Assembly: GCA_003614675.1 (NCBI GenBank) | Contig: ML002360.1 | Coordinates: 1 to 38,289, forward strand | Length of the DNA stretch: 38,289 nt | Reading direction: 5' to 3' | From: Dimargaris cristalligena | Lineage: Eukaryota | Part shown: in pieces, positions 3,392 through 36,507 of the stretch | Numbering within the stretch: the first letter of the stretch is position 1 | How the letters are laid out: every line of letters begins with the position of its first letter | The notes under the pieces: generated by a model | Databases searched by the model: none | Told to the model about the DNA's origin: nothing | The model's input: only the letters and a program-made list of their open reading frames with translations | Program-made: the position numbers and the translations under genes

Positions 3392-6288
3392 ATGGACGCC
3401 GAGGAATTCCGTAAACATGGACATGAGGCCGTCGAAGCCATTGTCGCGTACATGGAAAATATCAACGACAGACCCGGTAAGAACCGATATATACACTTCT
3501 CTTTCCTTTAACAAAGCCCCGTCGGGCCTTATTTACCATACCGGTTTATGTTTTTGCTTCTGTTCCCTGTGCAGAGGGACTGCAATTATTTTGAAATGCC
3601 CAACAAATAAATAGTAAAGAAATCCCCCGTGGTGGGAATATTTGCGACAAATTCGATGAATATTGGACTGCTAAAATCGCGCCACACCTATACTCACATC
3701 GACCTCGATTCCCCCAACTTTTCCCACAGTTCGCTCGCAAGTAGCCCCTAACTACCTCCGGCAATCGGTGCCCAAACATGCGCCCAAGGAACCGGAGGAT
3801 TTCGACCAGGTCATGAAGGACTTCAACTCGGATATCATGCCTGGCATCACCCACTGGCACTCGGGCAAATTTTGCGCGTACTATCCCACCGCCTTTTCCT
3901 ACCCGTCCATGCTGGGTGAAATGTACATGGCTATGTTGGGCGTCAACGCGTCAACGGTAAGTATAGCTCCATGACCGACGGCCCCCCCCTTTTTTTTGGG
4001 GGGGGGATATCTACGGGCGTGTGATGATATTCGCCTATCCGTATAAGCCTTTGGGTTGACCCGGATTTGAAAAATAAATCTAAAAAAAATAAATGCCGTG
4101 CTCTTCGGCCAATTGGCTACGGCCTTCTCCGCCCCCCTCCACACGCATCCACTTGCCTATACAGGTTTATCCCAAAATTAACACTCCCCATATGATCATA
4201 TTGTTTGGAATTATCCCCGGGTAACATTCGCTTCAGTGGGCCGCCAGTCCCGCGGCTACGGAACTCGAATACATTACCATGGATTGGGTGGCGAAACTGA
4301 TTGGTTTAAGCGATGCTTTTCTAAATACTGGTAAAGGCGGCGGTGTGATTCAAGTAAGTATATATTTTACCCTGAGGTCTACTGCGTACTATGTTAACAC
4401 CGGGCGAGGAGCCGAGTCATAATGGTGCGAAGGTTATTTTCCGACTAATTCCCTGGGGATAAAGCGAGCTATGGGTGACTACAAGACATTTCGACTTAAC
4501 ATGCCTCCAGTCGAGTAAATTTACAATACCCAAGGGGCCTTTTACCAAACAATATGCCATTTTGAAAATACTGGCCATCTCCTTTGTAGAACTCGGCTAG
4601 CGATGCCACTCTCCTGGTTATGGCGGCGGCTCGCACACGAATTCTGGATCATTTGTCAACGCAGGAAACTATAGATCCCCATGTGGCTGCCACAAAATTA
4701 GTGGCCTACTCCTCGGACCAGGTAAGTAACCCGTGTGATATATTCAATCTCGGACTAGTATAGGCCGTCGATACCCGCCACCAGCACATCGGAATCCGCG
4801 AAATGTCTTTAGACCACATTTATAACAAAGCGGTCTATTCGTGGGTTGCTCAGTTGATTTATAGCATTGGATTGATATTGAACCTATAAGCAATGGTATG
4901 GTTTTATTTTTTTATACCCCACCTTCTGACCCTTTCTATACCCGCAGACTCACTCCAGTTGTCAAAAGGCCGCCAAAATCCTAGGACTTCGGTTCCGGGC
5001 TCTTCCGACTCGCGATGACTGTATTTTGCGCGGCGATGTGGTCCGCCAAGCAATGCGCGAGGATATTGCCCAGGGTCTTATACCCTGTTACATAACAGTG
5101 ACAATCGGGACAACTTCGACTGGGGCGGTTGACGATATTACCAGTATCGTAGAAGCATGTAAGGCCACAGTGATCCCGAATGGGCGGAGGCTACCGTTCT
5201 ATTGTTTTAACGTCTATTTTTTTCTTCCTACCCTACTTCCGTCCCATGGTCCGGTTAAAGTATCCTCTGTATTGGCAAACCATTGGCCAGTGATCTATTG
5301 ATTTATCCGAAGACTGGGACACTTGGCACTGCCGGAAAACCGGTTAAATTAGTTTGCCACACCGCTTCTTTCCCGCCTGACTACTTTCCAGTATACGACT
5401 ATTGGCCTTCTATATACCTACCCAGCCGTACTAACTTCTCCTTTTCCCCTGTCGACCTATATATTTCCCGATTCAGGCAAAGATACCCAGGTCTGGGTTC
5501 ATGTAGATGCCGCCTACGCTGGCAGTGCCATGGTATGTCCCGAATTCCGCCACTTTATGAAAGGAGTGGATCAGGTGGACTCGTTTGACTTTAATATGCA
5601 TAAATGGCTTTTGATTCACTTCGATTGCTCGTGTTTGTTTGTCAAGGACCGGGGGCTTCTCGTCCGGATTAGCACGGGTGCACCCGACGCCAGGGCTACA
5701 ACTAACCCGACTCCGAGCACCACTCTCTCCGATACCCCGGATCTCCGGCCCCAGAGCCTAGAGGTGGGGGGCACCGAATCGGGCGAATCCACTACCACCA
5801 CTACCCGGGTGGAAAGTTTAACCGATTTCGGACCATCGACTAATCGTCGGTTCCGTGCCCTACGGCTGTGGTTCACCATTCGGTCCTACGGCCAATCCGG
5901 CCTCCAGAACTTCATCCGGAACCACATTAATCTAATGAGGTATTTCCAAACTTTCTTAGCAGCCGATGGACGGTTCGAAGTGCTCACCCCCGTTCACTTT
6001 AGTTTAATTGGCCTTCGCCTAAACCCCGAGCTGTGCCAGCGCGTGGACCTGGGAATGGGCGGAGTCCCGGATAAGTCCAACCCCGAACTCCGTAACAACG
6101 CCGCCAACGCTCGTCTACATGGTATGATTAATGAAGCGGGCGTCTTCTTGACGAAGAGCGACCTGCATGGCAAAACCTTTATTCGTGTTAGCATCGGTGC
6201 ATTCAAATCGAATCGGGAGTCCGTTGAACATATTTGGTCGGTGATTCAACAATCGACTGACCAGATGTTGCTGACTCCACCCCAGTAA
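3392..6288 (+). CDS. Aromatic-L-amino-acid decarboxylase-family protein (group II PLP-dependent), paralogue 1, atypical catalytic loop; ~527 aa, 6 exons
   Basis: Exons 3392-3476, 3730-3956, 4237-4353, 4590-4721, 4948-5158, 5477-6288; all introns GT-AG, frame continuous. Motifs: [60 protein letters not shown] (PLP lysine), [10 protein letters not shown]. Confidence 0.93.
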
Positions 6289-10147: not shown

Positions 10148-13100
10148 ATGGACGCTCAGGAATTCCGCAAACATGCCCACCAGGCTGTGGAAGACATTGT
10201 TAACTATATGGAGAATTTGAACGAACGACCCGGTAAGTACATACCTTCCGCTTCTTCTGACCTGGGCATAGGTGCGCTAAAGTGAGAGCTTTAGGTTAGT
10301 AGAGCCCCGATACTAGCTGATACTGTCGCTTAAGAAAGAAAGAAAGTAAAGGGCATACTCTACCATGCGACCCAATATCAAGACGCACCCTAATTTTGAA
10401 TTCAGGGAAGTCAACAACACACCAACCCTTTTTACTTGAAAAGTACTGGATTGAAACAACCACCCGTCGTTGTCTACTAATCCGTGCAGCCCAGTTATAC
10501 CCCATGTATGAATTCAACCAGTCTTATCCCAGGTGCGTCCCGGTTACCTGCGCGACTTGATCCCGTCCGAAGCCCCCAAGGAGCCCGAGGACTTTGATCT
10601 GGTCATGAAAGAATTCCACGAAAAGATCATGCCCGGCATCACCCACTGGCAATCGGGCAAGTTCATGGCGTATTTTCCGTCCGGATTCTCGTATCCCTCC
10701 GTTTTGGGAGAAATGTACAATGCGATGGTGGCCGTCATTGGATTTAATGTAAGCTTTTTGGGAAGGGGGGGATAATTCTAAATTAGGCAATGCGAATTTT
10801 AAAGTTTATTAAATTAAATACGGCAATGGTTGATTATTGTCTCAAAGCCGGCATAGGGTTTGTGTTTTTAGAACCATTCTAGAAGAAACATCAGCCAAAC
10901 TAAAACCCTTCCTCTATGAAATACCTCACACCATTCTTATACATGCCTTGTAGTGGATCAACAGTCCAGCGGTTACCGAGCTCGAACACGTCATGATGGA
11001 CTGGTGGGTTAGGCTGCTCGGCCTGGGCGACGGTTTCTTGTCCACTGGTAAGGGTGGCGGCGTTATCCAGGTAAGCACGATTGATACCACCACACAACCT
11101 GCATGAACCCCCCTGTGCTGCCTTTTTTTCACATAACTACCGTTGATCAAATGACTCGTATAGCACAGGGACTCTGGGATGCATGGTGCCCCCCCCCTTT
11201 GGATGTCTATCACTGTTATATATCCCCCCCCATATTAACATGGGAGAAGTTCATTCAGGCTGTATAATGAAAAATCCATTGGATGCGGCCAATATTACTG
11301 GTTAAAAGCTATTCTCACATATATTCGCCCATACACGTATATTGTAAAACCTTATACAGCTGGGTTGAATTTTACCCATATCAAGTTTTTTGGTTGACTT
11401 ATCTTTCCCCTGCCTATCCCCATTCCATACTATACCATGGCATACCATGCTACGCTGCCCCGTCGACAGAACTCGGCGACCGATTCCCTCATAGTGTGCA
11501 TGGCTGCGGCCACTAAACGCCAAATCCACGCCTTGGCATCCGATGAAGATGTGGATACTTCGGTCTTGCGCGCTAAAATGGTCATCTACGGATCAGACCA
11601 GGTAGGCCTTCTGAGTGTTTAGATGCAATGTGGTCCCTCCTGAAATCATATGGGATACCCATACACATCCCTGTATACTTTACTAACAGCAATTGTACTA
11701 TATTCCAAACAACTTCACTGAATCATATCTGACCCCCCCTCCCTTCACACACACACCTATCCTGCACCAAACTTCCCATTTCTAGACCCACTCGGGAACT
11801 GCCAAAGCGGCCCGACTTTTGGGATATATTCATCGAGTAGTCCCCACCGACGACTCTTGTGTTCTGAAGGGATCCGTCCTCAAGGCTGTCATGGACCGAG
11901 ATGTTCAAAAGGGACTCATCCCTCTCCTCATTACGGCAACCATTGGTACTACAGGTTTTGGTTCTATGGATGACCTTCCGAGTATTGTCGAGGCCGGTAA
12001 GTAATGCCTTTCATGGCCCTATCTTGAGAATCGGCCAGTATTGGGGAATAATAAAGCCGGGTATCGGGAGAACTGATTCCGGATCATAGTTTGGGAACTG
12101 CAACCTTCCATGCTGAATACTTATCTGCGCTGTACCCATTGTCCGGAGGCTCCCATGCTGCACAAACCTATGCCTGATCTTCCACCTGGACGATTAGCTA
12201 CTTACTGGGGGGTACTTATTACCCATAGCCCAAGAGTCTACTATTTGGTACTCTCCTAGCCCAACATTATCATCTACTTATTTGTGATTTATGTACTGTT
12301 TTCCCCCGCACATGTTCCTGCATCCGGCCAATTTCCCGAAACCCAACCTAATCACTGGTGCCCTCCTACCCCACGTGTACACCTAACTTTGGTCCAAAAT
12401 GACCCTGAATAACATCGGTACAACCATATCATCACAATCAACTCACCCGCCGACTCCCCCCACCCACCAGCCAAATCCCACGGGGTCTGGGTTCACGTTG
12501 ACGCTGCCTACGCCGGCAATGCCATGGTATGCCCTGAGTTCCGCCACCTCCAGCAAGGCGTTGAACAGGTCGACTCCTACATTTTCAACCCCCACAAATG
12601 GCTGCTCCTCCACTTCGACTGCACCTGTCTCTTCCTCAAGGACACCGCCGCCGTCACCGATGCTCTAACCGTCCGCCCCTACTATCTGCGCTACCACGAA
12701 CACGACCAGGGGCTCGTCGAAGACTTTAGCGACTACCAGGTCTCCCTGGGTCGCCGCTTCCGGTCCCTCAAGGTATGGTTTACGCTCCGGTCGTACGGCG
12801 AATCGGGCCTCCAACAATACGTGCGGAACCATTACCGGCTTATCAACCGCCTGGAGGCCGCTTTCCGGGCGGATAGACGGTTCGAGATTTTAAATCCGGT
12901 GCATCTGCCCCTCATCTGTTTCCGGCTTACCCCGGCCGTATGTATCGCCAGCGTGAAAAATCGCCATTGGGTGGCCGAAACGGTTGGCGATGGAAACATC
13001 ACCACCACCAGCAGCTCCCAAGAAAACGGCAGCAGCAGCAGCGGTGACAATGGTCCATTCCCCTTTGAGCCCCTGGGGATTGGTTTTAGGAGCGCCGCCG

Positions 13101-13381
13101 AAGTGGCGGAGGAATTGGTTGACGGGATTAACGTGGGCCGGAAAGAAGGAGGAGGAGGGCCGGTGCTGACCCCGGAAGCTATCCGAATCACTAATGAGCG
13201 GAACCTACAGCTGTTCAATATTATTAACCAATCCGGCATTTTTATCTCCAAAGCCGATATCCACGGCCAGGTCATTTTGCGCGTGTGTATCGGGACCTTT
13301 AATTCCACCGACGAAACTACTGATTTCAGCTGGAATGTGATTCGTCAGAGCGCGGACAAATTGCTGATGGCCTCCTCCTAA
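10148..13381 (+). CDS. Aromatic-L-amino-acid (DOPA/Trp/Tyr-type) decarboxylase, paralogue 2; ~560 aa, 6 exons
   Basis: Exons 10148-10232, 10522-10748, 10954-11070, 11470-11601, 11786-11996, 12471-13381. The first five exon sizes (85/227/117/132/211) equal those of paralogue 1. Motifs: [33 protein letters not shown], loop PYYL, DYQVSLGRRFRSLKVWF. Confidence 0.95.
11242..11377 (+). mobile_element. 136-bp MITE, copy 3, inside intron 3 of AADC paralogue 2
   Basis: TIRs gggagaagttcattcaggctgtataa ... ttatacagctgggttgaattttaccc. Flanks ACAT (11238-11241) and ATAT (11378-11381), one mismatch. Confidence 0.88.
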
Positions 13382-15152: not shown

Positions 15153-18042
15153 TTAATGGTCTCCTTTTCCGGATTGCGACCCATCGGCGGAATGGTGACT
15201 GTAATATTGGGGATTATGGACAGGTGGAGCCGAAAGGCTGGCGGGAGCGGCGGCTTGAGCTGCATGTGGATGGTGCATTTCGTAACCGTAGTAGGGACTA
15301 CCGTGTGGTGGCGGCATTGAGTGGCCCATCGAACCGGGGGCTACTCCCGAGGCCGACACGCCTGAGGCCCCAGCCGCACCATTGGCACCCGGCGGGGCTG
15401 TTGGCGGAGCTTGGGGGTAGCCGCCGGGGTATCCGGGAGCTCCACCCCAGGGGGAGGCGGCTCCCGCAGGACCCGCGGGGGGGTAGCCACCACCGCCGTA
15501 GCCCGCGGCTCCCGCATAGTGGGGAGGGGGGACCGGGGGATAGCCCGCGGCAGCAGGGCTTCCGTAGCCACCGGCGATGGGGTTCATGCCGTACGGCGGG
15601 GGTGGGGCAGTCATGCCACCGGTGACGGCCATAGCGGCAACGGCATCACCGGGACGGTCCTTGCCCCACGAACACTTCAGCGGGCGGCCATTCAGCACCG
15701 TCCCGTTCAGTGTTGCGATGGCAGCAGCGGCGTTTTCGTGGGTGTCCATTCTAGATCAAGTCAATCAGGTAGCGCAAGGCGGAATGATCGGTTAGATTAC
15801 GCTGGACCAATATAAGTATATATAACATAAGCATTTTCAGAGCGGTCGACCTATCAAACCCAGTACCAAACGAGCTAACTAGACAGGTGGGATTCGTCTT
15901 TTTCGGATGCATTAACTTACTTGATGAAAGCGTAGCCCCGGTCAAACTGGAAGCGAGTGTTCACAATATAACCGTATTGTTGCAAAAGAGAAGTCACCTG
16001 GTCCGGGGTGGTCTGGGGGGCCATGTTGCCCAGGTACACGGTGGTGTTGTAGTAAGGGGTGCGGGTTACCACGGACTCGTAGCTTAGCTGGCCGGGGTGG
16101 GCCCGGTGGAACGACGAAGCGGCCCCCTTCTGGTTGGCCCAGTTCACCCGAATAGCCCGGGTTCCGATCCACTCTCCGTTCATCGTGTTGATGGCCTGTT
16201 CGGCATCGGTCTTCTCGCGGTAGGCAACGAACCCGAATCCACGGGTTTTACCCGACTGGGCATCCCACATGACGCGGGCGTCGCTGGGTGGGGAAATGGT
16301 ATTCCCAGGATATTCAGTTCAGGGGGGAAGATGGTGTGTAATGGTATAATCGTACAGATTAATAATCCGTGGTTTTCAAAGTTTAGAACGTAGATTGCAG
16401 GGCGTGGCCTTAGAAAACAATGTACTATATCATACCACTCTACCAGGAGGGTCATACATACCAGATGGACCAACTTACCTCATACTACCGAACACACCAA
16501 ACGCCTTTTGCAGGATCTGGTCATTCACTTCGGGACCCAGGTCACCCACAAAAATGTGGTGGTGGTCTAAAAGGAGTGGTTGGTGGAAAAAATGGAGAGA
16601 CCAGCGTAATATTAACCAAAACAGTTAGATTCAGGGGGTTGGACAACTATGGACACACTATTAACTGGTACTATACTTCAAAGTGGTGTCAAGTTGGAAT
16701 AGGGCAGTGAGGCTTGGCATCCAACCACAAAAAGTGATACAGTCAATGAAATTAATTAGACGGCGCTAGTGGAGATGTCCCACTTACTGGAGGTATCTTC
16801 ACGGAAAGAGACGGAGCTAGCAAATGCCCAGTTCACTTTGATTTCCTACTCAGGCATGAACCGTGGCAGGGGAAATGTATAGGATATAAGATGATGTGCA
16901 GGGAATAGTGGATGATGAATTAGCACACAGGTGCAACAGCCGGAGCGTGATAGTGTATACCAGTTACACGGTCTATTGTGTAAAAACCGGTAGGGCAGAA
17001 TAAGCATGACATAAAATCGAGATCAAAGATGGAACGACGGAGGTACCTTATCAAACACCGAACGGCCGTTCATTATTAAAGCCTGTTCGGCGGCCTGGTG
17101 GTCACTGAATTCCACAAATCCGTAGTTCAGACCTTGGTTGGCAAACTAGAGGGTGGGTTGGTACAGGTTAAATGCAATGTTTTTTTAAAATATATATATA
17201 GTATAAAAATACAGATAAACAGACATGTAAATACAACAATCAACTGCCGGGGGTATCACGGTGAACAGCAAATAGAGTCGGAGATCCCCAAGGCAGTTCT
17301 CACCCCTCTGACGGGCAGTGCATTAGGCGAAACACGAACCAACAGTGTGGTATTGAACACACACAAACAAATCAATGGCGCCGGAGTTCCCCAAAAGCGC
17401 AACGAGGAACCAGTCTGATTTGATCAGCCCCCAGGAACTTTGGCTAACGAGACATATCTCAAATCCATCAATTTTAGATCCTCCGGTAGGTGGTTTGCCA
17501 AAGTAGCCCCATGCATTAAAGACCATTTTGCGGCTCTGGGCACGACTGAACTAAGCTCAGTTCAAATAACTCTACGCTGCCATATCCTTTATATTATCCG
17601 TGAAATATCTAACCACCACCATGTACATTGCCGTGTAGATACGGCGTTTTAGTAAACCCCGAATGCGGAGTTGCCTGGTTTGGGAGTTTTTTTTTTGGGG
17701 GGGGGTGGGGGGAGTATTTGTCACAGTAGACGAATACGTAACAGAGCAAACTAAAACTAAGTAGTTGGGTATATATGAACTTACATTACGGTCAGCGATG
17801 AGCTTCACGGATTGGACCTTTCCAAGGGTGTTGAAAATGTCACGGAGCATGTCCTCAGTGACACGAGGGTCAAGATTGCCGACGTACAGGCTGCGACAGC
17901 CTTCCTCGGAGCCAGCGGCGACTGCACCAGGACTAGGGTTATGCCCGGCACCGGACGGGTCCCCCTGGGCATGCTGGGGAGGGTAGCTGGGATAGGCCTG
18001 GCCCTGTGGAGCAGCGGGGTGGTGACCCGGATTAGAGTACAT
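15153..18042 (-). CDS. PUB1: Pub1/TIA-1/TIAR family triple-RRM RNA-binding protein with Gly/Pro/Tyr-rich low-complexity C-terminus; ~487 aa, 6 exons
   Basis: Exons (minus strand) 18042-17785, 17145-17047, 16845-16788, 16566-16479, 16283-15921, 15750-15153. RRM1 LYVGNL..NYGFVEF..IKVNWA; RRM2 HIFVGDL..DARVMWD..SGKTRGFGFVAY..AIRVNWANQK; RRM3 TVYLGN..DRGYAFIK..RPLKCSWGKDR. Confidence 0.92.
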
Positions 18043-18186
18043 GGTGAAGGAAGCGGAGATGGGCCAAGACCGCAATTGATGGTAAGAAGCGGGAGTGGAT
18101 AGAGTAGTGAGATTAGGTAATGAAAAGAGGAGTAAGGGAGGAGAAGTAAGGGTGTGGTGGTGAGGTAAGCTACCCTACAGGTAAGC

Positions 18187-23353: not shown

Positions 23354-25144
23354 ATGGCCGCCAACAACGCCGGTTCCGACCTATTCGAGAGCTACGAACA
23401 GGACTACATTACCCTGGCCCAGGACATCAGCAAATCCATTCACTCGCTTATCCCCTCAGCGACAGGAGGTTCGTTCTATCCCAGACAATTTGTATAACGG
23501 GTTGAGATGCCGTAGAAGGAGAGGGCCTGCCCAACCTGAAATGGTGCTACCCGACCTTCCCCTCAGTATCCACGTTCTCTCCCCTGACTTCATCTCACTA
23601 ATGGTCGGCTTGAATTTGCGGGTTACGCCTATTTGGGGATGCTTTTATTTTCATAACACCTCCTATGTTTTATAGACGGCAAAAAGCAACAAATAAAGAC
23701 TGCTCAGCGCCAAATTGAGGAGGCCGACGAAATTGTAAGTGACGCTGCCCCTCTGTCTGTTCTCTCAGCCTCGACGCTCCTTTTCATGGGCACACTACAG
23801 GGCCTCTTGTACGGATGTTTCTTAGTATCACTCCGCCTATGCGGGTCTCCGGAAGAGGACACGTTGAATAGGCCCCCCCCCCGATGTCGGAATTCATTTA
23901 TTCTCATTTCAACCGTAGCACCACGGTCGCGACCCCGTCTCCCTCTGTTGGGCCAAAACTAATATACTATTCCCCCCATGTTTATCTCCCCATCTATACC
24001 CCCCGTTCCCAATTCACCCCCAGCTGGGCCAAATGGAAATCGAAGTGTTTAATACCCCCTTCTCCATCCGTAGTCGCCTACAGGCCCGCCTCCGAAGCTA
24101 CCGTACCGACCTCGACCAATTTCGCCGGGACCTGAAAAAAGCCGCCGCCGGCCATAACCAAGAGCGCCAGGAATTATTCGGCGACCGGACCGGTGGGAGT
24201 AGCGCGTTTTCACCCTCGGACCTCGATGGCGCCGCCATGGACCAGCGCACCCGTCTTCTGGCCGGAACTGAGCGCCTCAATGATAGTAGCCGGCGGCTGC
24301 AGGATAGCCATGTTCTGGCCCTCGAAACCGAGACGGTCGGGGCCGGAATTTTGGCCGATTTGCGTACCCAGCGCGAGCAAATTATGCACACTCGGGATAC
24401 AGTAAGTAGTGCCTAGCTGGGCCATTATATATATATATATATATATTGTAACCCTAATTCGCTTGAAAGAGAAGAGAGGAGAAGGATTCTGCTTACCGAA
24501 GATATCCGGAAAAACTTCTCCTTCACCCGTATCTCATCCTTAGTTTTGGATGGTGTGTGGCAGGTGGTTTTTACAGAATGATATGGCTTTTGCCAGTCTC
24601 CCCCTCATCAGTTCCAGCGTGTTGGTATCGTGCTATACCTGTGGATCTAGACAGTCTACTAATTCTTAATCGTTCGACTTTTCCCTCCTTCATAACCTGT
24701 TCCTTTAGTTAATGGAAGCCGACTCGCACATCGACAAGGCCCAGCGCACTATCAAGGCCATGGCTCGGAGGTAAGTCTCTTGAAGAATTGAGATAGAGTG
24801 ACCAATTGCTGATATGGTGGTTATTATCTCATCCTTACAATAACCTATATTCACCCACATAGTTATAACACCCCTCAATCTTTAATCCACTAGCGCGTTT
24901 CTTCTAACAATATTCACCTTACTGTTAATTTGACTATTTGACTATACCCTATGTTGGCTGTTTTGCCAATCTCGGCTACCCACGCACTCCTACTCTTTTA
25001 TACGAACAACACCATCTTATGGATGGTTTGCCTGGTGATCCAACCTTCAGAATGGCCACTAACCGCATGATTACGGCCGCCGTGATTATTTTTCTGGTTG
25101 GCCTAATCCTCGTGGTGCTTTACCTTAAACTGTCCCGCAAATAA
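23354..25144 (+). CDS. VTI1: Vti1-family Qb-SNARE; ~235 aa, 5 exons, C-terminal transmembrane anchor
   Basis: Exons 23354-23468, 23676-23734, 24024-24401, 24709-24770, 25051-25144. Motifs: LFESYEQDY, EEADEILGQMEIEV, DQRTRLLAGTERL..SSRRLQDS..LALETETVGAGILADLRTQREQI, and a hydrophobic tail. Confidence 0.93.
24426..24446. repeat. (TA)n microsatellite in VTI1 intron 3
   Basis: Perfect TA run. Confidence 0.85.
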
Positions 25145-25578
25145 TCTCTGTACCAGGCTGGGTATTTGTCGGATCTCCAATGTATAATTTCTATATCCTC
25201 ACACTTCTTTTGTTCGCACCCTTTCTAGCCGGACTTCTCCTCCCTCCCTCCTTTACTATATACCCCTTCCCATTATGTTTATTCGAGCCTTCAGCGTATT
25301 CCTTCAACCTCCTATATAATTTCAAATCATGTACTGTCCCAACACTGGTTTCACCGTGACCATTTTTTATAAAAACGTTATCCGAAAAATACAGAAATCC
25401 ATAAGGCCCGCGTTCCATGCTGACGGGATGGCCAATTGGCTCAAGGCTGGAAAAGAAATAGTAAAATAAAAGACGAAACGACCGAATTGGAATGAATCTC
25501 TCCACCAAGACGGCCGATTGGGCACGTAGGAGCAGAGTAAAGAAGGTGTGTGGAGCAGGCGGGGTAGTGGCAATACAT

Positions 25579-27073
25579 CTATTTCGATACATTTGGAAGC
25601 GTGTAAGTTAGGGCCATTTTATGGTCCGGACTGAGGTGAAGGGTCGTGTCGTTAGGCAGATACGTTTTACAGTCGTAGGTCGGGCTTTGGGAGAAATCTG
25701 CTACCCCAGAATGCCTCTTCAAAAATTCGGTCGCTTTGGTCCACTCGTTATTTTTAGCGCATCCAACTAAAAATTTGGCCATTGGGATAGTATGCCCTTC
25801 GAGAACACCTTGGGCCGTGATCTCTTGATCCAATTCCACCGCCACTGCGGCGGCCAGATGACGTGGCGTATAAAAACCGGGCATGTTCTTTTCTACCATT
25901 TCCAGGAAGCTCTTCAAACCATCGGCATTATCTCTAGCCACGAAGCCGAGGGCCAATGAGTTGACTAGCTGGCGTATAAAAGCCTGGCCGAACTCTTGGA
26001 CGGGAAATGATGTGTGGACGGGAACATGTGGGAATTGAAAAGCGGAATCGATGGTATACCGGTTCAGATAGTCCAGCTCGGTATTGGTCGATAGGGCGAT
26101 GAGAACCACATCACGCGGGTTCAATTGTTCAGCCATGAGTCGGCCCACTGTAAAGAGGGTATTGGGCACGTTCAGATATTCTAGCACAATTCGAAGAAAA
26201 TCCATGTCGTTCCGCTGGACGGCCGCTTGGAGGGGCGCCCAAATGGTCAGTTTATCGGCGGTAAATTCAGCCAAGTGACGCTGGAGGAAGGCATCCCGGT
26301 TGCTAAGTTGTTTCAGTCGGTCCTTGAATTCCACCACGATCTCCTCAGCGTTGGGATACCTGGTCTTTTGCCTGGCCGTCCCCACAAATTCACCCAACGA
26401 CGAATAACCGATCTTCGCGAGGGTTCCCGAGATATAGCTCTGGTAAAAATAGATGTTGGCTTCGGAATTCAACAATAGAGCTAAGCTCTTGAAAATTACC
26501 TCTAGAGGCACATCCGGGCTGGTTTTTGGGTCAACACTGCCTTTCAAGAGACCTTGGGCCTATTAAAGTAATAGTGATATCGTGAGGGAAGGGGGTGGGA
26601 ACGGGTGCATCGGTATTTAAATTAGCATTTTTAAAGACCGAGTAATTAAAGGATATGCCCAAGGGCCACCGTGACCCACGTACTATTAAGTAGTACGCAT
26701 TACTAGTATCCCCTAGTGATTGACCAGTAAACCACAGAGCAGACGGCGGGTCGGACTACATGGCTACATTATCTAAAGTATGGCTAGAGGGGCATATGCT
26801 CATGTCACTTAAATAAAGGTACATTATTCCCCATTATATATTTATGAATCCTGCACTTACCGAGAGCATACACTTTTGGCGATAACTGTAATCCAAATCG
26901 TTTAGTTTTCGGTCCGCAGAACGAAGTGCCAACATATCCGCAGCATTGCATTGCCGGAAAATTTCGAACATAACTTCGGTGGACTGGTCCTTTAAGCCGG
27001 CACCAGTGGTTGGAGTAGCCATCACCGCCGAAGTACTAACGGCCAAGGCCAGACAAAGAATAGAGGGATACAT
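25579..27073 (-). CDS. Putative secreted protein A: signal peptide + F-box-like motif + helical/ankyrin-like region; ~397 aa, 2 exons
   Basis: Exon 1 27073-26861 (GTAAGT donor), exon 2 26559-25579 (TAG acceptor, phase 0). N-terminus MYPSILCLALAVSTSAVMA-TP, then LKDQSTEVMFEIFRQCNAADMLALRSADRKLNDL. A possible extra intron (GTATCG at 25590 to ttccAG at 25447) would only change the ending VSK* to P*. Confidence 0.82.
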
Positions 27074-27245
27074 ATCTAAAGGATAGGAAGGGGGTGAAAG
27101 ACTAGGGTATTTTCAAGCGAAAAATAAATAAACTAAAAGTCGGAGGAGAATCTGAGGTGGTAGTGAATCAGGGTGTAGGTCGCCAACAGTTACTGTATCA
27201 AAAGAATGTGGGGATGAAGGAAGAATAAGGAGAAGGAGAAGTAGC

Positions 27246-27266
27246 TATATATATATATATATATAT
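27246..27266 (-). promoter_or_regulatory. (TA)n run in TATA-like position ~170 nt upstream of gene A
   Basis: An equivalent run occurs at the same distance upstream of gene B (30997-31023). Confidence 0.5.
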
Positions 27267-28505
27267 TAATATCCACATTATTTGAGGTTACTAAATATGA
27301 CTATCTCTTCACGCCGGCGTTGGGACTGGCGAAATGGCTCCCCGACCAGACCATATCGGAGGTGATTTTCCTTCATAGGGTCGACAGTGGGTTTACCTTA
27401 CCGAATACTCCCCTAACATCTAGCTGCCTATATTAATGGCGCAAAGCCATCGACTAATATTGCACGTAGTATTGGCCACCCTTGCAGCGAGCAGCCAATG
27501 GAAGAACACAAACCAACCCTGCTCTAGTATTCTTGTTCGACCATTGAATAACTATAGAACCATCACAGAATCGTCATCGGCCATACATAAAGGTTGTGCA
27601 CTGCATGGGCGACCTTTTCCCCCTCTTTAGTCCCCTTTATCCTCTGGTATTTTTAACACGCCAATTATATGTCGATGAATGTTCAAGAGTTCGACATGTA
27701 CTCCCCATTTTCACCCCAACCTGAGCAGGGGTGTTGCTGTACGTCCATAAAACACCATTGGCTAGAGTCGAGTAAAAATTTTTTAGTGCGATTCAAAATT
27801 TTTGAAGAAATACGAAAAGTGAATCAGGTGGGAACGCCAGTTTATTTCCTACAGAGTTCGTTTCTCTAAACACACCCTTTACCAGTCGGCCGAATTGGAC
27901 CTCCCCCAATTTAGACTGGCATGACGGGCTGAAAATACAGTGAATTATGTGATGAAGGACCTGCTTTATGTGGCCCTCATTCGTGGGTGAAGCCAAATAT
28001 ATACCATTGTATGCAACATATCTATATCCCAGCCCTTTTTAGCAAGAATCTAAATCAATTCGGTTAATGGTACCAGTTGCTACCGCTTTCACTTATATAG
28101 TTGAAAATTGCAGGTATAATATATGCAAGATTTGTCCTAGGTATATGAGATATTGGACAATACTTTTAGTGGAAATTCTAAAGGAATATCAATAAAACTG
28201 TATAGAAGGACAGAAAACAGCTAGAGGACGGTAGGTGCCTCTAGGTAGTTAGGTTTTTTGAATAGCATAGTCGACGGGGCATATTTTAAGTGGTTAAAAT
28301 GAGAGGGCAGGGTATAACTAAGTAAACCAATATGATTGGCCAGAAACAGGGGATAATACATTTACCATACTGTCACCTCCTGCTGGGTCTAAGGGAGCTT
28401 TAGAGAATATGGGTGCTGTAATATTAGGAAGCCTACCTATGTTTACAATGTCTCAGTATTAAAATGATAAGCCATTGTAATATGCCATGTCTGGTTGCTT
28501 ATTCA

Positions 28506-28922
28506 ATGGAAGCTGACTTACAGATTATCAAGGGCATGGTGCGGAGGTAAGTCTCTTGAAGAATTGATACAGTGGAGCTGTTTGCTAATAGGCTAACCAT
28601 TCTTTAATTCCTACAATACGCTATATTCACCCACATAGTTATAACACCCCTTAATCTTTAATCCACTGGTCCGTTCTTCTTACACAATTCACCTGGCCAT
28701 TTATTTGTTTTATATTTGAACATACCCCATGCCATCTGTTCTGCCAATCCTGGCTACCCACGCACGCCTACTCTTTTATACGAACAACACCATCTTATGG
28801 ATGGTTTGCCTGGTGATCCAACCTCTAGAATGGCTATTAACCGCATGATTACGGCCGCCGTGATTATTTGTCTGGTTGGCCTAATCCTCGTGGTGCTTTA
28901 CCTTGAACTGCCCCGCAAATAA
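28506..28922 (+). pseudogene. Duplicated 3' fragment of VTI1 (exon 4 remnant, intron, exon 5)
   Basis: Exons 28506-28546 and 28829-28922, splice sites intact (GTAAGT / cTAG). Has an 18-nt in-frame deletion relative to VTI1 and lacks VTI1 exons 1-3. Confidence 0.8.
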
Positions 28923-29356
28923 TCTCTGTACCAGGCTGGGTATTTGTCGGATCTCCAATGTATAATTTCTATATCCTCACACTTCTTTTGTTCGCACCCT
29001 TTCTAGCCGGACTTCTCCTCCCTCCCTCCTTTACTATATACCCCTTCCTATTATGTTTATTCGAGCCTTCAGCGTATTCCTTCAACCTCCTATATAATTT
29101 CAAATCATGTACTGTCCCAACACTGGTTTCACCGTGACCATTTTTTATAAAAACGCTATCCGAAAAATACAGAAATCCATAAGGCCCGCGTTCCATGCTG
29201 ACGGGATGGCCAATTGGCTCAAGGCTGGAAAAGAAATAGTAAAATAAAAGACGAAACGACCGAATTGGAATGAATCTCTCCACCAAGACGGCCGATTGGG
29301 CACGTAGGAGCAGAGTAAAGAAGGTGTGTGGAGCAGGCGGGGTAGTGGCAATACAT

Positions 29357-30829
29357 CTACTTCGATACATTTGGAAGCGTGTAAGTTAGGGCCATTTTAT
29401 GGTCCGGACTGAGGTGAAGGGTCGTGTCGTTAGGCAGATACGTTTTACAGTCGTAGGTTGGGCTTTGGGAGGACTTCTCTACCTTAAAATGCAACTTAAA
29501 AAATTTGGCCGCTTTAGACCACATATTTTTTTCGGTGCAACCAACTAAGTATTGGGCCATTGGGATTTCATGCCCTTCGAGAATACCTTGGGCCATGACC
29601 TCTTGATCCAATTCCACCGCCACTGCGGCGGCCAGATGACGAGGTGCATAAAATCTGGACATGTTCTTTTCCACCATTTCCAGGAAGTTCTTCAAATCAT
29701 CAGTATCACCGCTAGCCACGAAGCCGAGGGCCAGCGAGTTGACTAGCTGGTGAATGAAGGATTTTAAAAACCGGTCGTAGAATGGCATTAAGTAGTTGGA
29801 ATACACGGGATCATATCTGGTTAAATCCAGACTGTCCGCCCCAGTGATCAGTGCACCATGGCTGGCTAGGGCGGCAAATTTAACGTCATCCTCGTTCAAA
29901 TTTTGGGCTAGGCGAAGGCCCAGCATAATAGAAGAGGTGGGTAGGGTCAGGTAGTGGAGGACCCTATCGAGTATTGCCAAGTCCTTATTCATGACGGCCG
30001 ATTGGAGAGGTGCCGAAACCACTAGTCCCTTGGGAGTAAATTCAGACAAGGGACGTTGCGGATAGGCCCCACGGGCCCGTAATTGGTCCAATCGGTCCTT
30101 GAATCCCGCCACTGTCGCCTCGGCGTTGGGATACTTAGTCCGTTGGTGGGGCTTACCTTCAAATTTACCCATCTGCGAATAGCCGGTTTGCTTGAGGGTG
30201 CCCCGAATAAAGCGCTGGTAAAAATGAATGTGGGTCTCGGACTCCAGTAACACGGACAAATTCCCTAGAACTCCCTCTAATGACGATCTCAAATTGATTA
30301 TCGGGACACTACCTGTTCTCAAGGCGTTTTGGACCTATTATAGTTATGGCGATACGGGTGTGTATGAGTGTGGATTGTTTATTTGTGTTAGTATTTTTCA
30401 AAGTATAGGTCATTAAATGATATGTCAAGGACCACGCAATATTTGTACCCGCAGAGGCGTATATTTCTATTCTATATAGTGATAGGCCAGCGGTTTATGG
30501 CGCCCAGAGCAGGCTTGACTGCATGGCTACATCATCTAACGCACGCCTGGAGGAAATTACCATGTGCTGGTGAAATAGAATTGGATTATTTATCGTAATA
30601 CATTTACGCCACTTACCGAGACAACATAGTTATAGCGATAACACATGTCTATATTGTTCAATTCCAGGTTCGCGGAACGAAACTCCGACAAATCCGCAAC
30701 ATCGCATCGCTCGAGAATTTGGTGGATAACCTCGGTGGGTTTACCCGTTAGATGGCTGGCAGAGGTTGGAGCAGCTATAACCGTTGAAGTGCCAATGGCC
30801 AAGGCCAGGCAGATGATAGATGAGTACAT
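29357..30829 (-). CDS. Putative secreted protein B, paralogue of A; ~396 aa, 2 exons
   Basis: Exon 1 30829-30617 (213 nt, as in A), exon 2 30334-29357. N-terminus MYSSIICLALAIGTSTVIA-AP, then LTGKPTEVIHQILERCDVADLSEFRSANLELNNI. Last 37 aa are identical to A. Confidence 0.82.
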
Positions 30830-30996
30830 TTCTAAAGGAGAGGGGGATAGTGAGACACCGGGATAATTGTAGGTGAAACTAACAATTACCAGACAAGAAT
30901 CTGAGGTGGTAGTGAAATAGGGAGTATATCACCTATAGTTATATTGTATCCCAAGAATGTGGTGATGAAGGTAGAATGAAGGGGAGTTGAGGTAGC

Positions 30997-31023
30997 TATA
31001 TATGTATATATATATATATATAT
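30997..31023 (-). promoter_or_regulatory. (TA)n run in TATA-like position upstream of gene B
   Basis: Positional equivalent of 27246-27266. Confidence 0.5.
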
Positions 31024-32948
31024 CCACATTACTTGAAATCACTAAATCAATCTATGTTTTTGTGCCGACGCTGGGTGCGGCGAAATGCCCCCCCACCAGA
31101 CTATAGCGAAGGACGATGCTCATTTGAAGAGCCATCTATTTATCCCAAACGACATCTTAACATCTAGCTGGCTATACTAACGGTACCAAAATGCCGGTTA
31201 TTTTTACGCTGTATTGACCACCCTTGCGGTGAGCGGCCAATGAAGAACACACACCCTTCCTTCCCTAATATACTTGTTTGACTATTGCGTAACTATAGAA
31301 CTATCAGGGAATTGACCTTGACCATACATAAAGCTTGTGCACCGCATGGGCGGCCTTTTCCCCCTCGTTAGTCCCTTTAAGCCTTTGGCATTTGTGGCAC
31401 GTCTATTATATACCCAGGAGTGTTCAACTATTCAACATGTACTCCCTATTTTTACACCAGCTCTGGGTAATGGGCATTGCGGTACGCCGATATCCTACCA
31501 TTAGTTAGAGTAGAGTAATATTTTTTTAGTTCGATATAAATGATTTCAAGAGATTCATATCTTAATGTGGGAATGGCTGCCTCTTTTATCCCGTAGAGTT
31601 CGTTTATCTAAGAATATTATATATCATACAGCTAAACTGTACCTGTTAGGCATTGGGGTGACAGGCTAATATAGGGGAGGAACGATTGAGTTTTGCTATG
31701 AAGTATCCTTTTCTATGAGATCTGTAGTAGCGGGTAAATCTTAAAACCCCAACCATTTTACACGGCTGATATATAATTTGCTCGTGTTTAACAAGGGCCT
31801 GGATATCTGAGATTAGCTGTTCCCTCATTATCTTCTGCGAAGACTGTTAGTTACCACTAGATTCACTTATGAAGATATTAAATGCAAGCACAATACAAAT
31901 ATGAAAGAGATTCAATCAGCGAGAATAACGAAATGTCCGTCTGATGGGATGGGTAATGGTGGGTAGCAATAAATACACCACACATTTGATTATATCCCAA
32001 TCAGGTAAACCCTTATACAGGGGGGGGGCTGAATTTCCAACATATCTTATTTAACCAGTCTAGGCATCATATACCTTACACCCATATAATAGATATCCCT
32101 ATTCAATATGGCTATAGGAGTTGTCTTGACTGGGAAGAGAGACAACACTATGTGGGTGGGGAAATAGTTAAACGGACGCAGCCAAACCATGACCAAGTCC
32201 TGGGGGGTGGACTGTCCATCGGGTGGGCAATACATGATCAAGCTATGACTGGTATTTTTGGGGGGGCCTTCGTTTAAACCATTACGGATCCATTCGCCTC
32301 CAGCCCTCATAAAAGCCTTGATTCGACCCAATGTTCTTCCATTGCTACGTTCTTCTGTATGTTGACGGTGTGTAAATGTAAGGCATATCCCCCCTAACCG
32401 GTAAGATATATGCGCATGCTGACCTAACAGGTTGCAACCTCATTATGCTCCACTAATTCAGGGGATACGGCGTGAGATTATTTAAATTGGATAGCCTGTA
32501 CTAGGCCCGATTAATAATCTAAACTAAAGATTAGATGTGCATTGTGATCTCTCAATGGAATACCACAACGTGAATATGGATGGGAAAACAAACTTAAACA
32601 GAGTAAGGGTTTTATTATTCAATGGACCAAAATGCAGCAAGGTCAGGGAAGACTAGGTTGCAAAGATGCAGCGAAAGACCGGTATAGGGGAGGTTATAAA
32701 ATAAAACCCCCAGGCACCGAGAAGTTTAGCTAATAATTTAGAACCTATCCCCCCTTGCCAGGCCGAAGGGACGCGGAAGTCCATACACATTAAAGAAGAT
32801 ATTCCCCTGAGCCAAGGCGATGATAAATGATGGGGGAGGGGAACATGCAACAGGCCAGGAAATGTACAACATCGATGGATAGTCGTAACCACTAATGTGA
32901 GAGTGAATGATGGAGAGAGGAAAGCAGAATGAGGTTGGTAAAAAGAAT

Positions 32949-33658
32949 TTACAACTTAACCTCCTTGAGACCATCCTTGAGCATGATCAGGTAGGGGGTG
33001 ACACCATCTTCACGGAAGTTCAGGAGGGCGACCATGCCGTCGGGGTTCATGGATTCACCGACGTAGAAGTCGTAATCCTTGATGTTGGCAACGACCTTCT
33101 TCACCAGCTTAGTGGCACCAGCCTCGAAGATGGGGATGCGTTCGGGGTTGGTCTCCTGGAGCTTAGCCTTGATGGCCTTCAAGTAGCCGCGGATGTAGGT
33201 CATGTAGCTCTTCTTGTCAAAAGAAGAGGCGTTGAGGCGGAACGAGTGGACCACATTGTTCACCTGAATGGCACCCTCTTCGAGAGCCTCGTCTTCACCA
33301 CCTTCGGCGGAAGGATTGGCACCAATGTCCACATCGGCACCGGGCTTGACGGTCACCATAGCGCAGTCAACCTCGACGATGGCATCATCGATGACGGTCA
33401 TGGGGAAGGCGTCGGAGACCATCTCGTCGCCTGGATGGAGTGGGCAGTGAAGTGAAGTGAAGTGAAATGAAGAGATGAGATAATTAGCATTGGACCAGAG
33501 TGGGTGAGTGATAGATAGATAGAGGAGCTGGAGAGGTGCCCCTTTCTTTCATCTGGGGGAGTTCCCCTCGGTCTACTTTTTCGGGAGATCAAGTAGTAGC
33601 ATAGGTGGAGAATATTGCTTTTCAACTTACCAGTAAGAATATCGGTGTACAGCAGCAT
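32949..33658 (-). CDS. TMA19: Translationally controlled tumour protein (TCTP/Tma19); 169 aa, 2 exons
   Basis: Exons 33658-33631 and 33430-32949. Motifs: MLLYTDILTGDEMVSDAF, DIGANPSAEGG, FDKKSYMTYIRGYLK, FYVGESMNPDGMVALLNFREDGVTPY, KDGLKEVKL. Confidence 0.97.
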
Positions 33659-35099
33659 GGTGAAAGAGTAGAGGTAGTAGAGTGGGGAATCTAACAAAAA
33701 GAGTAGATGAACAGGCCGAAGAAACGGAAGAATAGACTAACAAAACTCAACGGAAGTAAGGCAAGAAACAAAAAAGCCGGCGGGGGTGGTGGTGGGGGGT
33801 ATAGCCCCTGCCAGCGTTGGGTCTCTTCTACAAAATGAGTGTGAGTGTGTGATACCACAAATTCCATTTTTTTTTTTCACCTCTCACACTCAACCTACTG
33901 CCAAATAGCTCTATAACTATATGGCCAATGCAAGCAATACAATAATGGGGCTGTTTCAGCCGAACCACCAATACAAACGCATACAAGGTAAACACTGCCA
34001 AAGGGCGCATTTACTCTTGCTGGTATGGTCAATACAACGAGTCTGTGTAGATTATAGCCAACCACGATATAATATGTCCCATGAAAAAAAAAATCCCCCA
34101 AATGGGAAGGGTTGGGACTGCCGGGGACTGATTGGTCCACACGGTATTTGGGTTTCCCATAATTGCACGTCGTGGTCCCACCCCGTCGAGCCCGTAAAAC
34201 AGCCAGGGAGAGGATCAATGGTGGTCTATACTGATTGAGCCGCATCATTATATACTACTATACCCTGGGACGTGCATGTTTGGTGTGTGAGCCATACAGA
34301 AGCGCCGCCACTCTCCCTCATTCTCATTCCCAGGTGGTTTGGCGGTCGTCTGTTATTCTGTATCGAACGGACGAAGAAGGAAGGGTCTCTATCGAGGGCA
34401 GTACTTGTCGAAGCTGATTGATTCTTCGTTGGGTATCGGGTCTACTACGAGGGCACTTGCCGCCCCCCCCTTTTCCACAGCGTGCCTGTTATATTTTTCT
34501 ATAGGCTACACGGAAAATGTAAAAGGCCGTATAGTAATGCAGCTAGTACTCTGCACTAAGTGGGCAGCGGGACTATCATCGATCGCATGTCGAGGCAACT
34601 GGTGTTTGCAGCTGCCGAGTCACTACTACTCCTACATGTTCTGGGCCCGTTGCGCGGCACATGGGTGGGTGTAGGTCTACATCTACATTTGTCTTTCAAT
34701 TCTCCTCCTCTTCCACTCTTTTCTTCGAGCTTCTCTTTCCGCGGGGCGAAACTACAGCTGCATCCCCTCTCCGCTTACATATCCGCCCCCCCCATTTTCG
34801 GGCCTAGCTCGACCTGCCACGGTAGATTGTATGCGGTAATGGTCTACTGCCCACTACACTGCTGTCCTTCTCTCCTCTTCCTCTCCCCCTCTTTACCGCT
34901 TTGTCACCTTATTCAGTAGAGTCCGCGCAAGCTGCACGCTCCTAGCCCATTCTTTCTCTCTCTTTCTCTAACTATCTCTTCTACTCTCGGTCCCTTTTAT
35001 TCTCTTACGGCTTCTTCTTTCAACCTTTTAACGTATATCTATATATCTGTCTGTAACTCTACTTAACGCATCCCTCCACCTCTATACACTGCATCCACC

Positions 35100-36507
35100 A
35101 TGACCGAAGGCACCGCCACTTTCTCATCTGCCGCTATTCCTGGTCCTTCCGGCTCCCCCGGCCTGGCCACGCCGACCAGCAGTGTCACACCCCCGAACTC
35201 CGCCGGCCCCGTTTCCTCCTCGACCGCTACTGCTCTTGCCCCGGGGGCCGGGGGTTCGGTCACCACTACTCCTACCCACTCCTCCACCACTACCCCTTCC
35301 CAATCCCGCCAAATTCCTCTCACATGCGCCGGTCACACCCGGCCCGTCGTACAGCTGCAATTCTCGTCCTTCACCCTCGATAACAACTATCTCCTGATTA
35401 GCGCCTGTAAGGATGGGATGCCCATTCTGCGGGATGGTATCACCGGTGACTGGGTCGGTACCTTCCTCGGCCATAAAGGGGCCGTATGGAGTGCTAAATT
35501 AAACCGTGACACATCGCGTGCTATTACCGCCTCCGCCGACTTCTCCGCGTAAGTACCCCCCCCACGAACCCTCTAAGAAGGCTATCGAGTCGATTACTGA
35601 CCCCTTTCCCCTACCATATTCTCTGATGCTGCCCCCCTCCCTGGATCATTCATCGTCTTTTGGACTCGATTCATATCTCGGTGGCACTTGAACCCCCCCT
35701 ACTTCTCAATGATTAACCAATGATCCTACTTGGTTTTCCATCCCCCTCCATAAATAATATGATCCTTCATTGATGGTGGACTATCTTCCTTCCGTTCCAT
35801 ACAGCAAACTATGGGATACCTACACCGGCCAGGAACTCCTCTCGTTCCCCCACCGCCACATTGTGCGCACCGCTGATTTCATCAATGACACCCACGTCGT
35901 CACCGGTGGTACCGAAAAGATGCTCCGCATTTTCGATTTGGACCACGCGGGGGGCAACAGCGGCCAGTGCGACATACCCGCCCTCGAGCTAGAGGGTCAC
36001 CAGGGGGCCATCAAACACGTGTCTTGGGACCGGACTCGGAGTCAGATCCTCAGTGCGGGTGACGACAAGCAAATCAACGTGTGGGATCTCCGTACCCCGT
36101 CGCCCGTGCATTCCTACCAGCTCGACGATCCCATCACCCATATGGATCTCTCCGCAGACGGTGAATTCGTCATGGGCGCCGCCGGCAAAACCATCCACTT
36201 CTGGGACGCCTCCAGCCGCCAGCTGGTCAAATCATACACCATGCCCTATGAGGTTTCCTCCGTCTCCATCCACCCCCACCACCATACCTTCGTAGCCGGT
36301 GGATCATCCGATTTGTGGGTGCACGTATACGATTTCGAAACCGGTCGGGAGTTGGAGGTCTACAAGGGCCACCACGGCCCCATTCATACTGTCAGCTACA
36401 GCCCCGACGGTGAGATTTACGCCACGGGATCCGAAGACGGTACGATCCGATTGTGGCAGACCACCCCCGGTAAAATTTATGGTCTATGGCAGCCACGCCG
36501 GGCTTAG
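35100..36507 (+). CDS. STRAP: STRAP/UNRIP-like WD40 repeat protein with Ser/Thr/Pro-rich N-terminal extension; ~383 aa, 2 exons
   Basis: Exons 35100-35548 and 35805-36507. Motifs: RQIPLTCAGHTRPVV, LISACKDG.PILRDG.TGDWVGTFLGHKGAVWS, TASADFSAKLWD, YKGHHGPIH.VSYSPDGEIYATGSEDGTIRLWQTTPGK.YGLW. Confidence 0.93.

Follow-up and report, generated by a model that had tools for sequence, protein, structure and literature searches.

Candidate secreted F-box effectors in a mycoparasitic fungus: a tandem gene pair of Dimargaris cristalligena with signal-peptide-type leaders, divergent F-box-like motifs and ankyrin-like repeats

Does a fungus that lives on other fungi export F-box proteins that mimic the substrate receptors of its host's ubiquitin ligase? 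This question is raised by a gene pair on contig ML002360.1 of Dimargaris cristalligena (assembly GCA_003614675.1), of which we analysed the stretch from position 1 to 38,289 of the forward strand (38,289 nucleotides (nt); hereafter the window). The interval 25579-30829 holds, on the minus strand, two tandem paralogous genes, A (27073..25579) and B (30829..29357), whose predicted proteins have 397 and 396 amino acids (aa), respectively. Position 25579 is the final base of the stop codon of gene A and position 30829 is the A of the ATG of gene B; tblastn with the public proteins found only these two copies in the window. An earlier reading of the window made from its letters (hereafter the sequence-only reading) had proposed a parasitic fungus as a possible source, and the guess was right, as D. 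cristalligena is one of the Dimargaritales, which are described in an excerpt of PMC9866270 as haustorial mycoparasites attacking Mucoromycota and Ascomycota through an appressorium and a biotrophic haustorium. We tentatively interpret A and B as candidate secreted F-box effectors that would mimic substrate receptors of the Skp1-Cul1-F-box (SCF) ligase of the host, a possibility that we favour short of calling it probable. This interpretation draws on a constrained leader, a motif at a fixed distance from it, a fast-evolving repeat domain, restriction to one species within the collections searched and the haustorial lifestyle.

Both genes are built on the same plan, with two exons and one intron, and the features are as follows.

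26861..27073, minus strand: exon 1 of gene A, 213 nt and 71 codons, with the leader and the F-box-like motif; a GTAAGT donor follows directly after 26861.
26560..26860, minus strand: intron of gene A, 301 nt, phase 0, GTAAGT...TAATAG, with in-frame stops.
25579..26559, minus strand: exon 2 of gene A, an open frame of 326 codons plus stop, with the helical-repeat domain and a conserved C-terminal tail.
30617..30829, minus strand: exon 1 of gene B, 213 nt and 71 codons, with the leader and the F-box-like motif.
30335..30616, minus strand: intron of gene B, 282 nt, phase 0, GTAAGT...TAATAG, with many in-frame stops.
29357..30334, minus strand: exon 2 of gene B, an open frame of 325 codons plus stop.
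27246..27272, minus strand: (TA)n TATA-like box of gene A, about 175-200 nt 5' of its ATG.
30997..31024, minus strand: (TA)n TATA-like box of gene B, 5' of its ATG.

The tandem pair, its coordinates, the 213-nt first exon and the phase-0 intron had all been given by the sequence-only reading, and translation and inspection of the splice sites showed them to be exact; the exon join proposed for B is also that of the NCBI model P0006, which represents B in a second assembly. The start codons of A and B are the first ATG past the (TA)n box and have an A at -3, and an in-frame stop lies 13 codons upstream of the ATG of gene A. The stretch between box and start codon contains neither an ATG nor a donor-like site, which makes a further coding exon upstream of exon 1 unlikely. 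Scanning for Rfam families, tRNAs and tandem repeats, over the window or the region, gave no matches.

A protein search with exon 2 of gene A returned three proteins, P0005, P0006 and P0007, all from D. cristalligena. P0005 is A in the second assembly and is 99% identical to exon 2 of A, while P0006 has 98.8% identity to exon 2 and 99% to exon 1 of gene B. P0007 is the JGI model of B (312 aa), and its exon 1 is identical to that of B. These public models disagree with one another. P0005 includes a 24-residue mini-exon from the intron of A that has no counterpart in B, P0007 omits 15 residues and stops early, and the paralogue P0008 misses 38 residues, including an ankyrin-like repeat, that are kept in its relative P0010. 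Furthermore, the protein search, which covered lengths of 179-571 aa, brought up no gene A model of this assembly. These discrepancies speak for an annotation artefact or decaying duplicates, in which, for one or both copies, the start or splice would be wrong or the gene would be a pseudogene. We consider this explanation very improbable. Frames of 397 and 396 codons are open, and the length of exon 1 and the intron phase are equal despite 45-55% protein divergence (identity between A and B: 45% for exon 1, 55% for exon 2). Over 392 codons, the proportion of nonsynonymous differences (pN) of 0.27 is below that of synonymous differences (pS) of 0.40, and the orthologues in the second assembly are 99% identical and intact.

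Both proteins begin with a hydrophobic leader of 19 residues.

27017..27073, minus strand: leader of gene A, residues 1-19 (MYPSILCLALAVSTSAVMA), with a 9-residue hydropathy peak of 2.8 and V-M-A at -3/-1.
30773..30829, minus strand: leader of gene B, residues 1-19 (MYSSIICLALAIGTSTVIA), with a 9-residue hydropathy peak of 3.0 and V-I-A at -3/-1.

A hydrophobic leader of about 19 residues ending in V-x-A had been proposed for both genes, and it is borne out by the hydropathy and by the residues at -3 and -1. The predicted cleavage point lies between MYPSILCLALAVSTSAVMA and TPTT in A, between MYSSIICLALAIGTSTVIA and APTS in B, and between MKLSPVAWLLMGIAPVCHG and ATPN in P0008. All three N-termini start with a short n-region that is uncharged or bears a Lys and continue with a hydrophobic core and with small residues at -3/-1, and the c-region, with these small residues followed by (T/A)-(P/T)-P, is kept in all of them; by inspection and hydropathy, A, B and P0008 show the layout of a Sec-type signal peptide, for which a hydrophobic core of 7-15 residues is expected. 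The leader of P0008 carries Lys2, has a core of about 11 hydrophobic residues and shows a 19-residue hydropathy mean of 1.29, and for these reasons we take it for a cleaved signal rather than an anchor. Beyond the leader there is no second hydrophobic segment, nor a KDEL- or HDEL-type end. The leader is also the best-kept part of the protein between A and B (pN 0.14 over 19 codons), with a ratio of nonsynonymous to synonymous substitution rates (dN/dS) of 0.17, and the ratio for the following 52 codons is 0.87. A mitochondrial presequence was considered for the leader and rejected, because it contains no Arg and no amphipathic pattern.

The F-box-like motif begins eight residues into the predicted mature protein in both A and B.

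26894..26995, minus strand: F-box-like motif of gene A, residues 27-60; Ser replaces Pro, and the motif aligns with those of B and P0008.
30650..30751, minus strand: F-box-like motif of gene B, residues 27-60; PF00646 matches at E = 0.12, with residues 31-52 on profile positions 5-26 of 43.

The motifs of the pair were confirmed in the translations (LKDQSTEVMFEIFRQCNAADM and LTGKPTEVIHQILERCDVADL). The claim of an F-box-like motif behind the leader stood in part: the motif is present and recurs in a more canonical form in P0008, but its Pfam matches are sub-threshold and A has none. It had been called degenerate, with Pro missing in A, and this was correct. The model PF00646 scored 12.8 bits on exon 1 of B (cut-off 20.5, E 0.12), while residues 31-61 of P0008 were matched by PF12937 with 14.8 bits (cut-off 24.3, E 0.024) and by PF00646 with 14.3 bits (cut-off 20.5, E 0.041). 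As E-values, these refer to a set of 24,736 models; if only the F-box clan that the sequence-only reading had named is considered, the chance per model comes to about 1e-6 to 5e-6 by our arithmetic. The sub-threshold matches fall in homologous alignment columns in two of the three N-termini, and the distance between motif and leader is constant in paralogues that are only 23-29% identical.

The motif of P0008 is closer to the canonical form than those of A and B, reading LINLPVEIDDMVLDRCD......LSQVCQKW (LINLPVEI...VCQKW; LP.EI...VL..C...L..VC.KW). P0008 was found through its C-terminal domain and without reference to the motif, and its F-box therefore counts as independent support. A search of the ESM Atlas with residues 20-100 of P0008 returned only F-box clusters (top feature score 0.91, 122 of 256 features shared), and its structure rows were also F-box clusters in 10 of 10 cases, with template modelling (TM) scores by query of 0.52-0.62. 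We take these predicted neighbours as a lead only. Six-frame translation of the window gives 76,574 residues, in which the pattern used by the sequence-only reading does not occur outside the two motifs, although this uniqueness is no independent test, as the pattern was drawn from these two sites. We put down to chance the weak Pfam matches to SnoaL_4 (E 0.07-0.13) and to MACPF_1 (E 0.054).

Exon 2 encodes the largest part of the protein, and an ankyrin-like character had been ascribed to it.

26173..26238, minus strand: ankyrin-like repeat of gene A (APLQAAVQRNDMDFLRIVLEYL); the family profile resembles designed ankyrin repeats at positions 168-198 (E 0.4-1.3).
29948..30013, minus strand: ankyrin-like repeat of gene B (APLQSAVMNKDLAILDRVLHYL), in the same alignment columns as in A.

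The strings quoted in support of this ascription are present, and the family profile gives weak matches to designed ankyrins, but the Pfam Ank models at E ≤ 10 matched none of seven proteins (P0001, P0002, P0005, P0006, P0007, P0008 and P0010). Against PDB sequences, the profile obtained 12 weak matches (E 0.11-1.3). Five of these were designed ankyrin repeats, namely four named DARPin/ANK designs and 4k5b_A, which was recognised in the alignment, and all five align at profile positions 168-198, the 'PLQAAVQ...' segment of the sequence-only reading. At this segment, P0010 reads TPLYWAIQEGKTAIVDSIM. In the Atlas search with the whole protein, ankyrin clusters came first (0.94, 146 of 256 features shared), with recognition below the bar of the tool, and one cluster combining F-box and Ank stood at 0.92.

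The AlphaFold model of B is all helical, with a predicted local distance difference test (pLDDT) of 50-86 over residues 105-360. Overall, the mean pLDDT is 56.2 and the predicted TM score (pTM) 0.60 for B, and 44.4 and 0.40 for P0008. Foldseek with the B model gave no match at E ≤ 0.001, and its top row was a DARPin scaffold at E 0.74. The best Z score in VIA-align was 6.3; 19 chains reached Z ≥ 5 and none Z ≥ 8, and among the best 50 rows, six were named ankyrin proteins amid many other helical repeats. Matches at such Z may reflect only a common arrangement. We conclude that the domain encoded by exon 2 is probably a helical repeat of degenerate ankyrin descent, and not a demonstrable member of that family. 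Near the end of the protein, the four paralogues share without change the two cysteines C337 and C367 (P0006 numbering) together with the surrounding block, and each predicted mature protein of A and B contains four Cys. The C-terminus is LPNVSK, with no CaaX.

Comparison of the two copies indicated how the pair has evolved. The duplicated units extend over about 24750-27980 and 28526-31730, with a start-to-start distance of about 3.75-3.78 kb, and they contain a near-identical tract of about 600 bp that spans the last ~25 codons of A and B and the 3' flank.

25050..25650, no strand assigned: near-identical tract on the A side, 95-100% identical (99-100% from 25151) to 28830-29430.
28830..29430, no strand assigned: near-identical tract on the B side, found by sliding identity, the partner of 25050-25650.

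The identity of the units is 80-87% over the next 300 bp and 39-71% across the remaining coding sequence, and in codons 372-397 the pS between A and B is only 0.05. The near-identical tail is also found in the proteins of the second assembly. The tract looks like the result of recent gene conversion and not like an assembly error. Over the whole comparison, dN is 0.34, dS is 0.57 and dN/dS is 0.59; judged from these values, protein evolution in the pair is fast and weakly constrained. The sequence-only reading had pictured the genes as a modular targeting exon combined with a variable substrate-binding one; this was not upheld, because exon 1 is no better kept than exon 2 and only the leader of 19 codons is conserved. 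The 5' flanks (27195-27295 and 27494-27790 compared with 30946-31046 and 31236-31535) are 76-82% identical, which is above most of the coding sequence. In them lie the (TA)n box and an element resembling CCAAT (GCCAATG/CATTGGC). These flanks may represent promoters that have been conserved, or some other element that is not recognised.

The family to which A and B belong appears to be small and confined to one species. A phmmer search with P0006 against 1.84 billion representatives (E ≤ 0.001) gave four matches, P0007, P0005, P0008 and P0009, and no family member from outside Dimargaris. P0008 is a Dimargaris paralogue of 355 aa with 29% identity (E 5.6e-10), its best stretch being residues 193-390 of the query, and P0010 is a partial relative of P0008 with which it is 58% identical. 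The family thus comprises four distinct members, all from D. cristalligena, so that at least four paralogues are known. In metagenome contigs, a scan with the family alignment gave 141 pattern matches, none of which was confirmed by tblastn. A search for exon 1 among longer proteins matched two of 32 candidates, both of them B's own models, and no leader-plus-F-box module joined to a different C-terminus was seen among them, which is weak evidence. P0009 was set aside as a spurious match due to low complexity or repeats, since it is a repetitive protein of 2756 residues in which only 45 residues were matched. It consists of near-identical repeats of about 45 residues (…AVCDQVGATWCAHSLRVDRSVRSSRRHLVRPFSESWPQCAIKS…), and its match to B extends over 45 residues at E 1.4e-5.

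Several of our results count against the interpretation of A and B as secreted F-box effectors. The 19-residue hydropathy means of the A and B leaders are 1.67-1.79; as the classical threshold for a membrane span is about 1.6, an uncleaved anchor is possible in both proteins. Every Pfam F-box match lies below its cut-off (12.8-14.8 bits vs 20.5 or 24.3), and exon 1 of A and the full-length P0005, P0006 and P0007 gave no Pfam F-box match at E ≤ 10. The canonical F-box has a Pro and, in its third helix, a Trp; A and B carry Leu at the Trp position, and in A the Pro is replaced by Ser. When the PDB sequences were searched with P0006, with P0008 and with A2, a profile of the N-terminus, no F-box match emerged (0 at E ≤ 10 each). 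The Atlas model of residues 20-100 of P0008 has a pLDDT of 0.45 and a pTM of 0.33, with all rows 'under the bar', and in the AlphaFold models the pLDDT is below 40 over the N-termini (residues 1-105 of B and 1-136 of P0008), with one long helix (44-78) drawn where helices 2 and 3 of an F-box would be expected. Moreover, dN/dS was below 1 in nine of ten 40-codon windows, so positive selection is not demonstrated.

The hydropathy of the leaders is one reason to consider that A and B may be ordinary endogenous F-box proteins, the N-terminus of which is not used as a signal or remains as an uncleaved anchor and holds a membrane-tethered SCF receptor in the cytosol of the parasite. The combination of F-box and ankyrin exists in fungi, as seen in an Ascomycota Atlas cluster in which 73% of the members have Ank_4 and 24% F-box-like. 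F-box families that are specific to one lineage and evolve fast are a common sight among eukaryotes, and the pair is surrounded by housekeeping genes and sits in no obvious effector cluster. We regard this explanation as unlikely, although it deserves attention. The P0008 leader, as described above, is too short for a membrane span. According to the positive-inside rule, an anchor with the C-terminus inside is expected to have a basic cluster after the hydrophobic core, and none is found in the three N-termini. The c-region, with small residues at -3/-1 and then T/A-P, is also kept in three of three N-termini.

The weak motif, in turn, suits secreted or secretory-pathway proteins in which the F-box-like stretch does not bind Skp1 and is a decayed remnant or a helical cap. 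The site of action of A and B would then lie beyond the cytosol, where they could, for instance, be helical-repeat binders of a wall, surface or apoplast type. The evidence of the leader applies equally to this explanation, as do the sub-threshold F-box matches with none in A, the lack of Pro in A and the lack of Trp in both. The F-box part is near-neutral between A and B (dN/dS 0.87, reaching 1.09 in codons 41-80), and the two invariant Cys of the tail and the four Cys of each mature protein suit disulfides. It does not readily agree with the constant distance of the motif from the leader in such diverged paralogues or with the near-canonical motif of P0008, the feature and structure neighbours of the motif region are all F-box clusters, and the Pfam scans found no ordinary extracellular domain. 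On balance, we presume that it is improbable, without being negligible.

On the interpretation that we favour, that of a secreted F-box effector, each protein would have three parts: a cleavable signal peptide cut after residue 19, a divergent F-box, and about 300 residues of degenerate ankyrin-like repeats, the C-terminal end of which would be the conserved Cys-containing tail. The leader would route the protein into the secretory pathway of the parasite and away from its own Skp1. The protein would be released at the haustorium and then enter the host hypha, where the F-box may dock on the conserved Skp1-Cul1 core of the host and the repeat domain may choose the host proteins to be ubiquitinated. 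The fast evolution of the mature part would fit a host-facing protein, and so would a tandem duplication accompanied by gene conversion. That A and B are secreted, reach the host, bind Skp1 and recruit substrates are steps that we infer; it is the domain architecture and the haustorial habit of the parasite that speak for entry into the host cell and for the recruitment of Skp1/Cul1. The more ambitious proposal, namely that with this family secreted F-box effectors are met for the first time in fungi, and for the first time in use by a fungus against a fungus, exported by the ordinary secretory route into Mucorales hyphae, docking on Skp1-Cul1 and causing the degradation of host proteins, is in our opinion doubtful.

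In effector families of the Hessian fly, the leader is typically conserved while the mature protein has diverged, and the dN/dS of 0.17 in the leader of A and B compared with 0.59 overall resembles this pattern. [quoted passage not shown] In both cases a eukaryotic parasite has a signal-peptide-type leader, an F-box and repeats, which for A and B we read from the sequence alone. The repeats of SSGP71 are LRR and those of A and B ankyrin-like, the SSGP71 family is very large whereas only four members are known here, and SSGP71 serves an insect on a plant whereas A and B would serve a fungus on a fungus. Skp1 binding was demonstrated for SSGP71 and is only proposed for A and B, and no sequence relationship was detected between them.

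Bacterial effectors offer a second comparison. AnkB of Legionella pneumophila is presented in PMC2790608 as an F-box effector that hijacks host polyubiquitination. A and B would resemble AnkB, VirF of Agrobacterium, GALA/RipG of Ralstonia and the Anks of Orientia in combining an F-box with ankyrin or other repeats in a manner that would exploit the host SCF. These bacterial effectors differ in that they use type III or IV secretion, have no Sec-type eukaryotic leader and show no detectable homology to the pair, and AnkB is membrane-anchored by farnesylation, whereas the A/B family has no CaaX at its LPNVSK end. The ankyrin/PRANC proteins of poxviruses, which are viral proteins made in the host cytosol, carry ankyrin repeats and an F-box-like Skp1-binding motif. 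This motif is C-terminal, unlike the N-terminal motif of A and B, and proteins made in the host cytosol need no leader. Endogenous fungal F-box/ankyrin proteins share with A and B the order of an N-terminal F-box, or in A and B a putative one, followed by ankyrin-type repeats, and the nearest language-model clusters are of this kind. To our knowledge, such proteins normally have no N-terminal signal peptide; they are also detected by Pfam, whereas the A/B family falls below the F-box cut-offs and has no Ank match in seven proteins.

SCF hijacking by F-box mimicry has so far been known from bacteria, viruses and a gall midge. A and B would accordingly be a case of a known kind, unrelated in sequence and with a new pairing of kingdoms. 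Two genes of the family are already in the databases as 'F-box domain-containing' proteins, which is the UniRef name of the JGI models P0007 and P0008. We found no literature naming both 'Dimargaris cristalligena' and 'F-box'. Among the matches listed in our literature search, judged by the titles and abstracts, the phrases 'secreted F-box' and 'secretory F-box' were not used and no such protein was described in a mycoparasite. An excerpt of PMC8146833 likewise remarks on the scant material tying F-box domains to eukaryotic pathogenicity. Effector biology is almost unexplored in the biotrophy of fungi on fungi. If A and B are secreted and bind host Skp1, fungi that attack other fungi would join the parasites known to hijack SCF in this way, and the family would provide a small and tractable test case, with four paralogues, a cultivable host-parasite pair and a conserved Skp1. 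If they are not secreted, A and B would be one more lineage-specific F-box family.

The neighbours of the pair in the window are housekeeping genes by Pfam, encoding TCTP, a v-SNARE, WD40 and RRM proteins, and pyridoxal phosphate (PLP) decarboxylases.

32949-33548, minus strand: TCTP (Pfam E 5e-66).
35067-36507, plus strand: WD40 beta-propeller protein (Pfam), split across at least two frames.
17572-18174, minus strand: RRM protein (Pfam).

Pyridoxal_deC frames were observed at 4930-6288 on the plus strand (E 6.5e-15 and 6e-39) and at 12413-13381 on the plus strand (E 6e-53), and they possibly belong to a pair of paralogous genes for PLP-dependent decarboxylases, separated by about 7 kb. A frame at 23919-24416 encodes a Vti1-type v-SNARE with the Pfam domains V-SNARE and V-SNARE_C. 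Downstream of it, a short frame on the plus strand (24929-25144), for which Pfam gave no match, ends in a hydrophobic tail (…RMATNRMITAAVIIFLVGLILVVLYLKLSRK) and is probably the last, tail-anchor exon of the v-SNARE gene. A diverged second copy of this frame is found at 28662-28922 on the plus strand in the B unit (repeat D1), with 94% DNA identity and without the rest of the SNARE gene, and it looks like a duplicated orphan SNARE exon.

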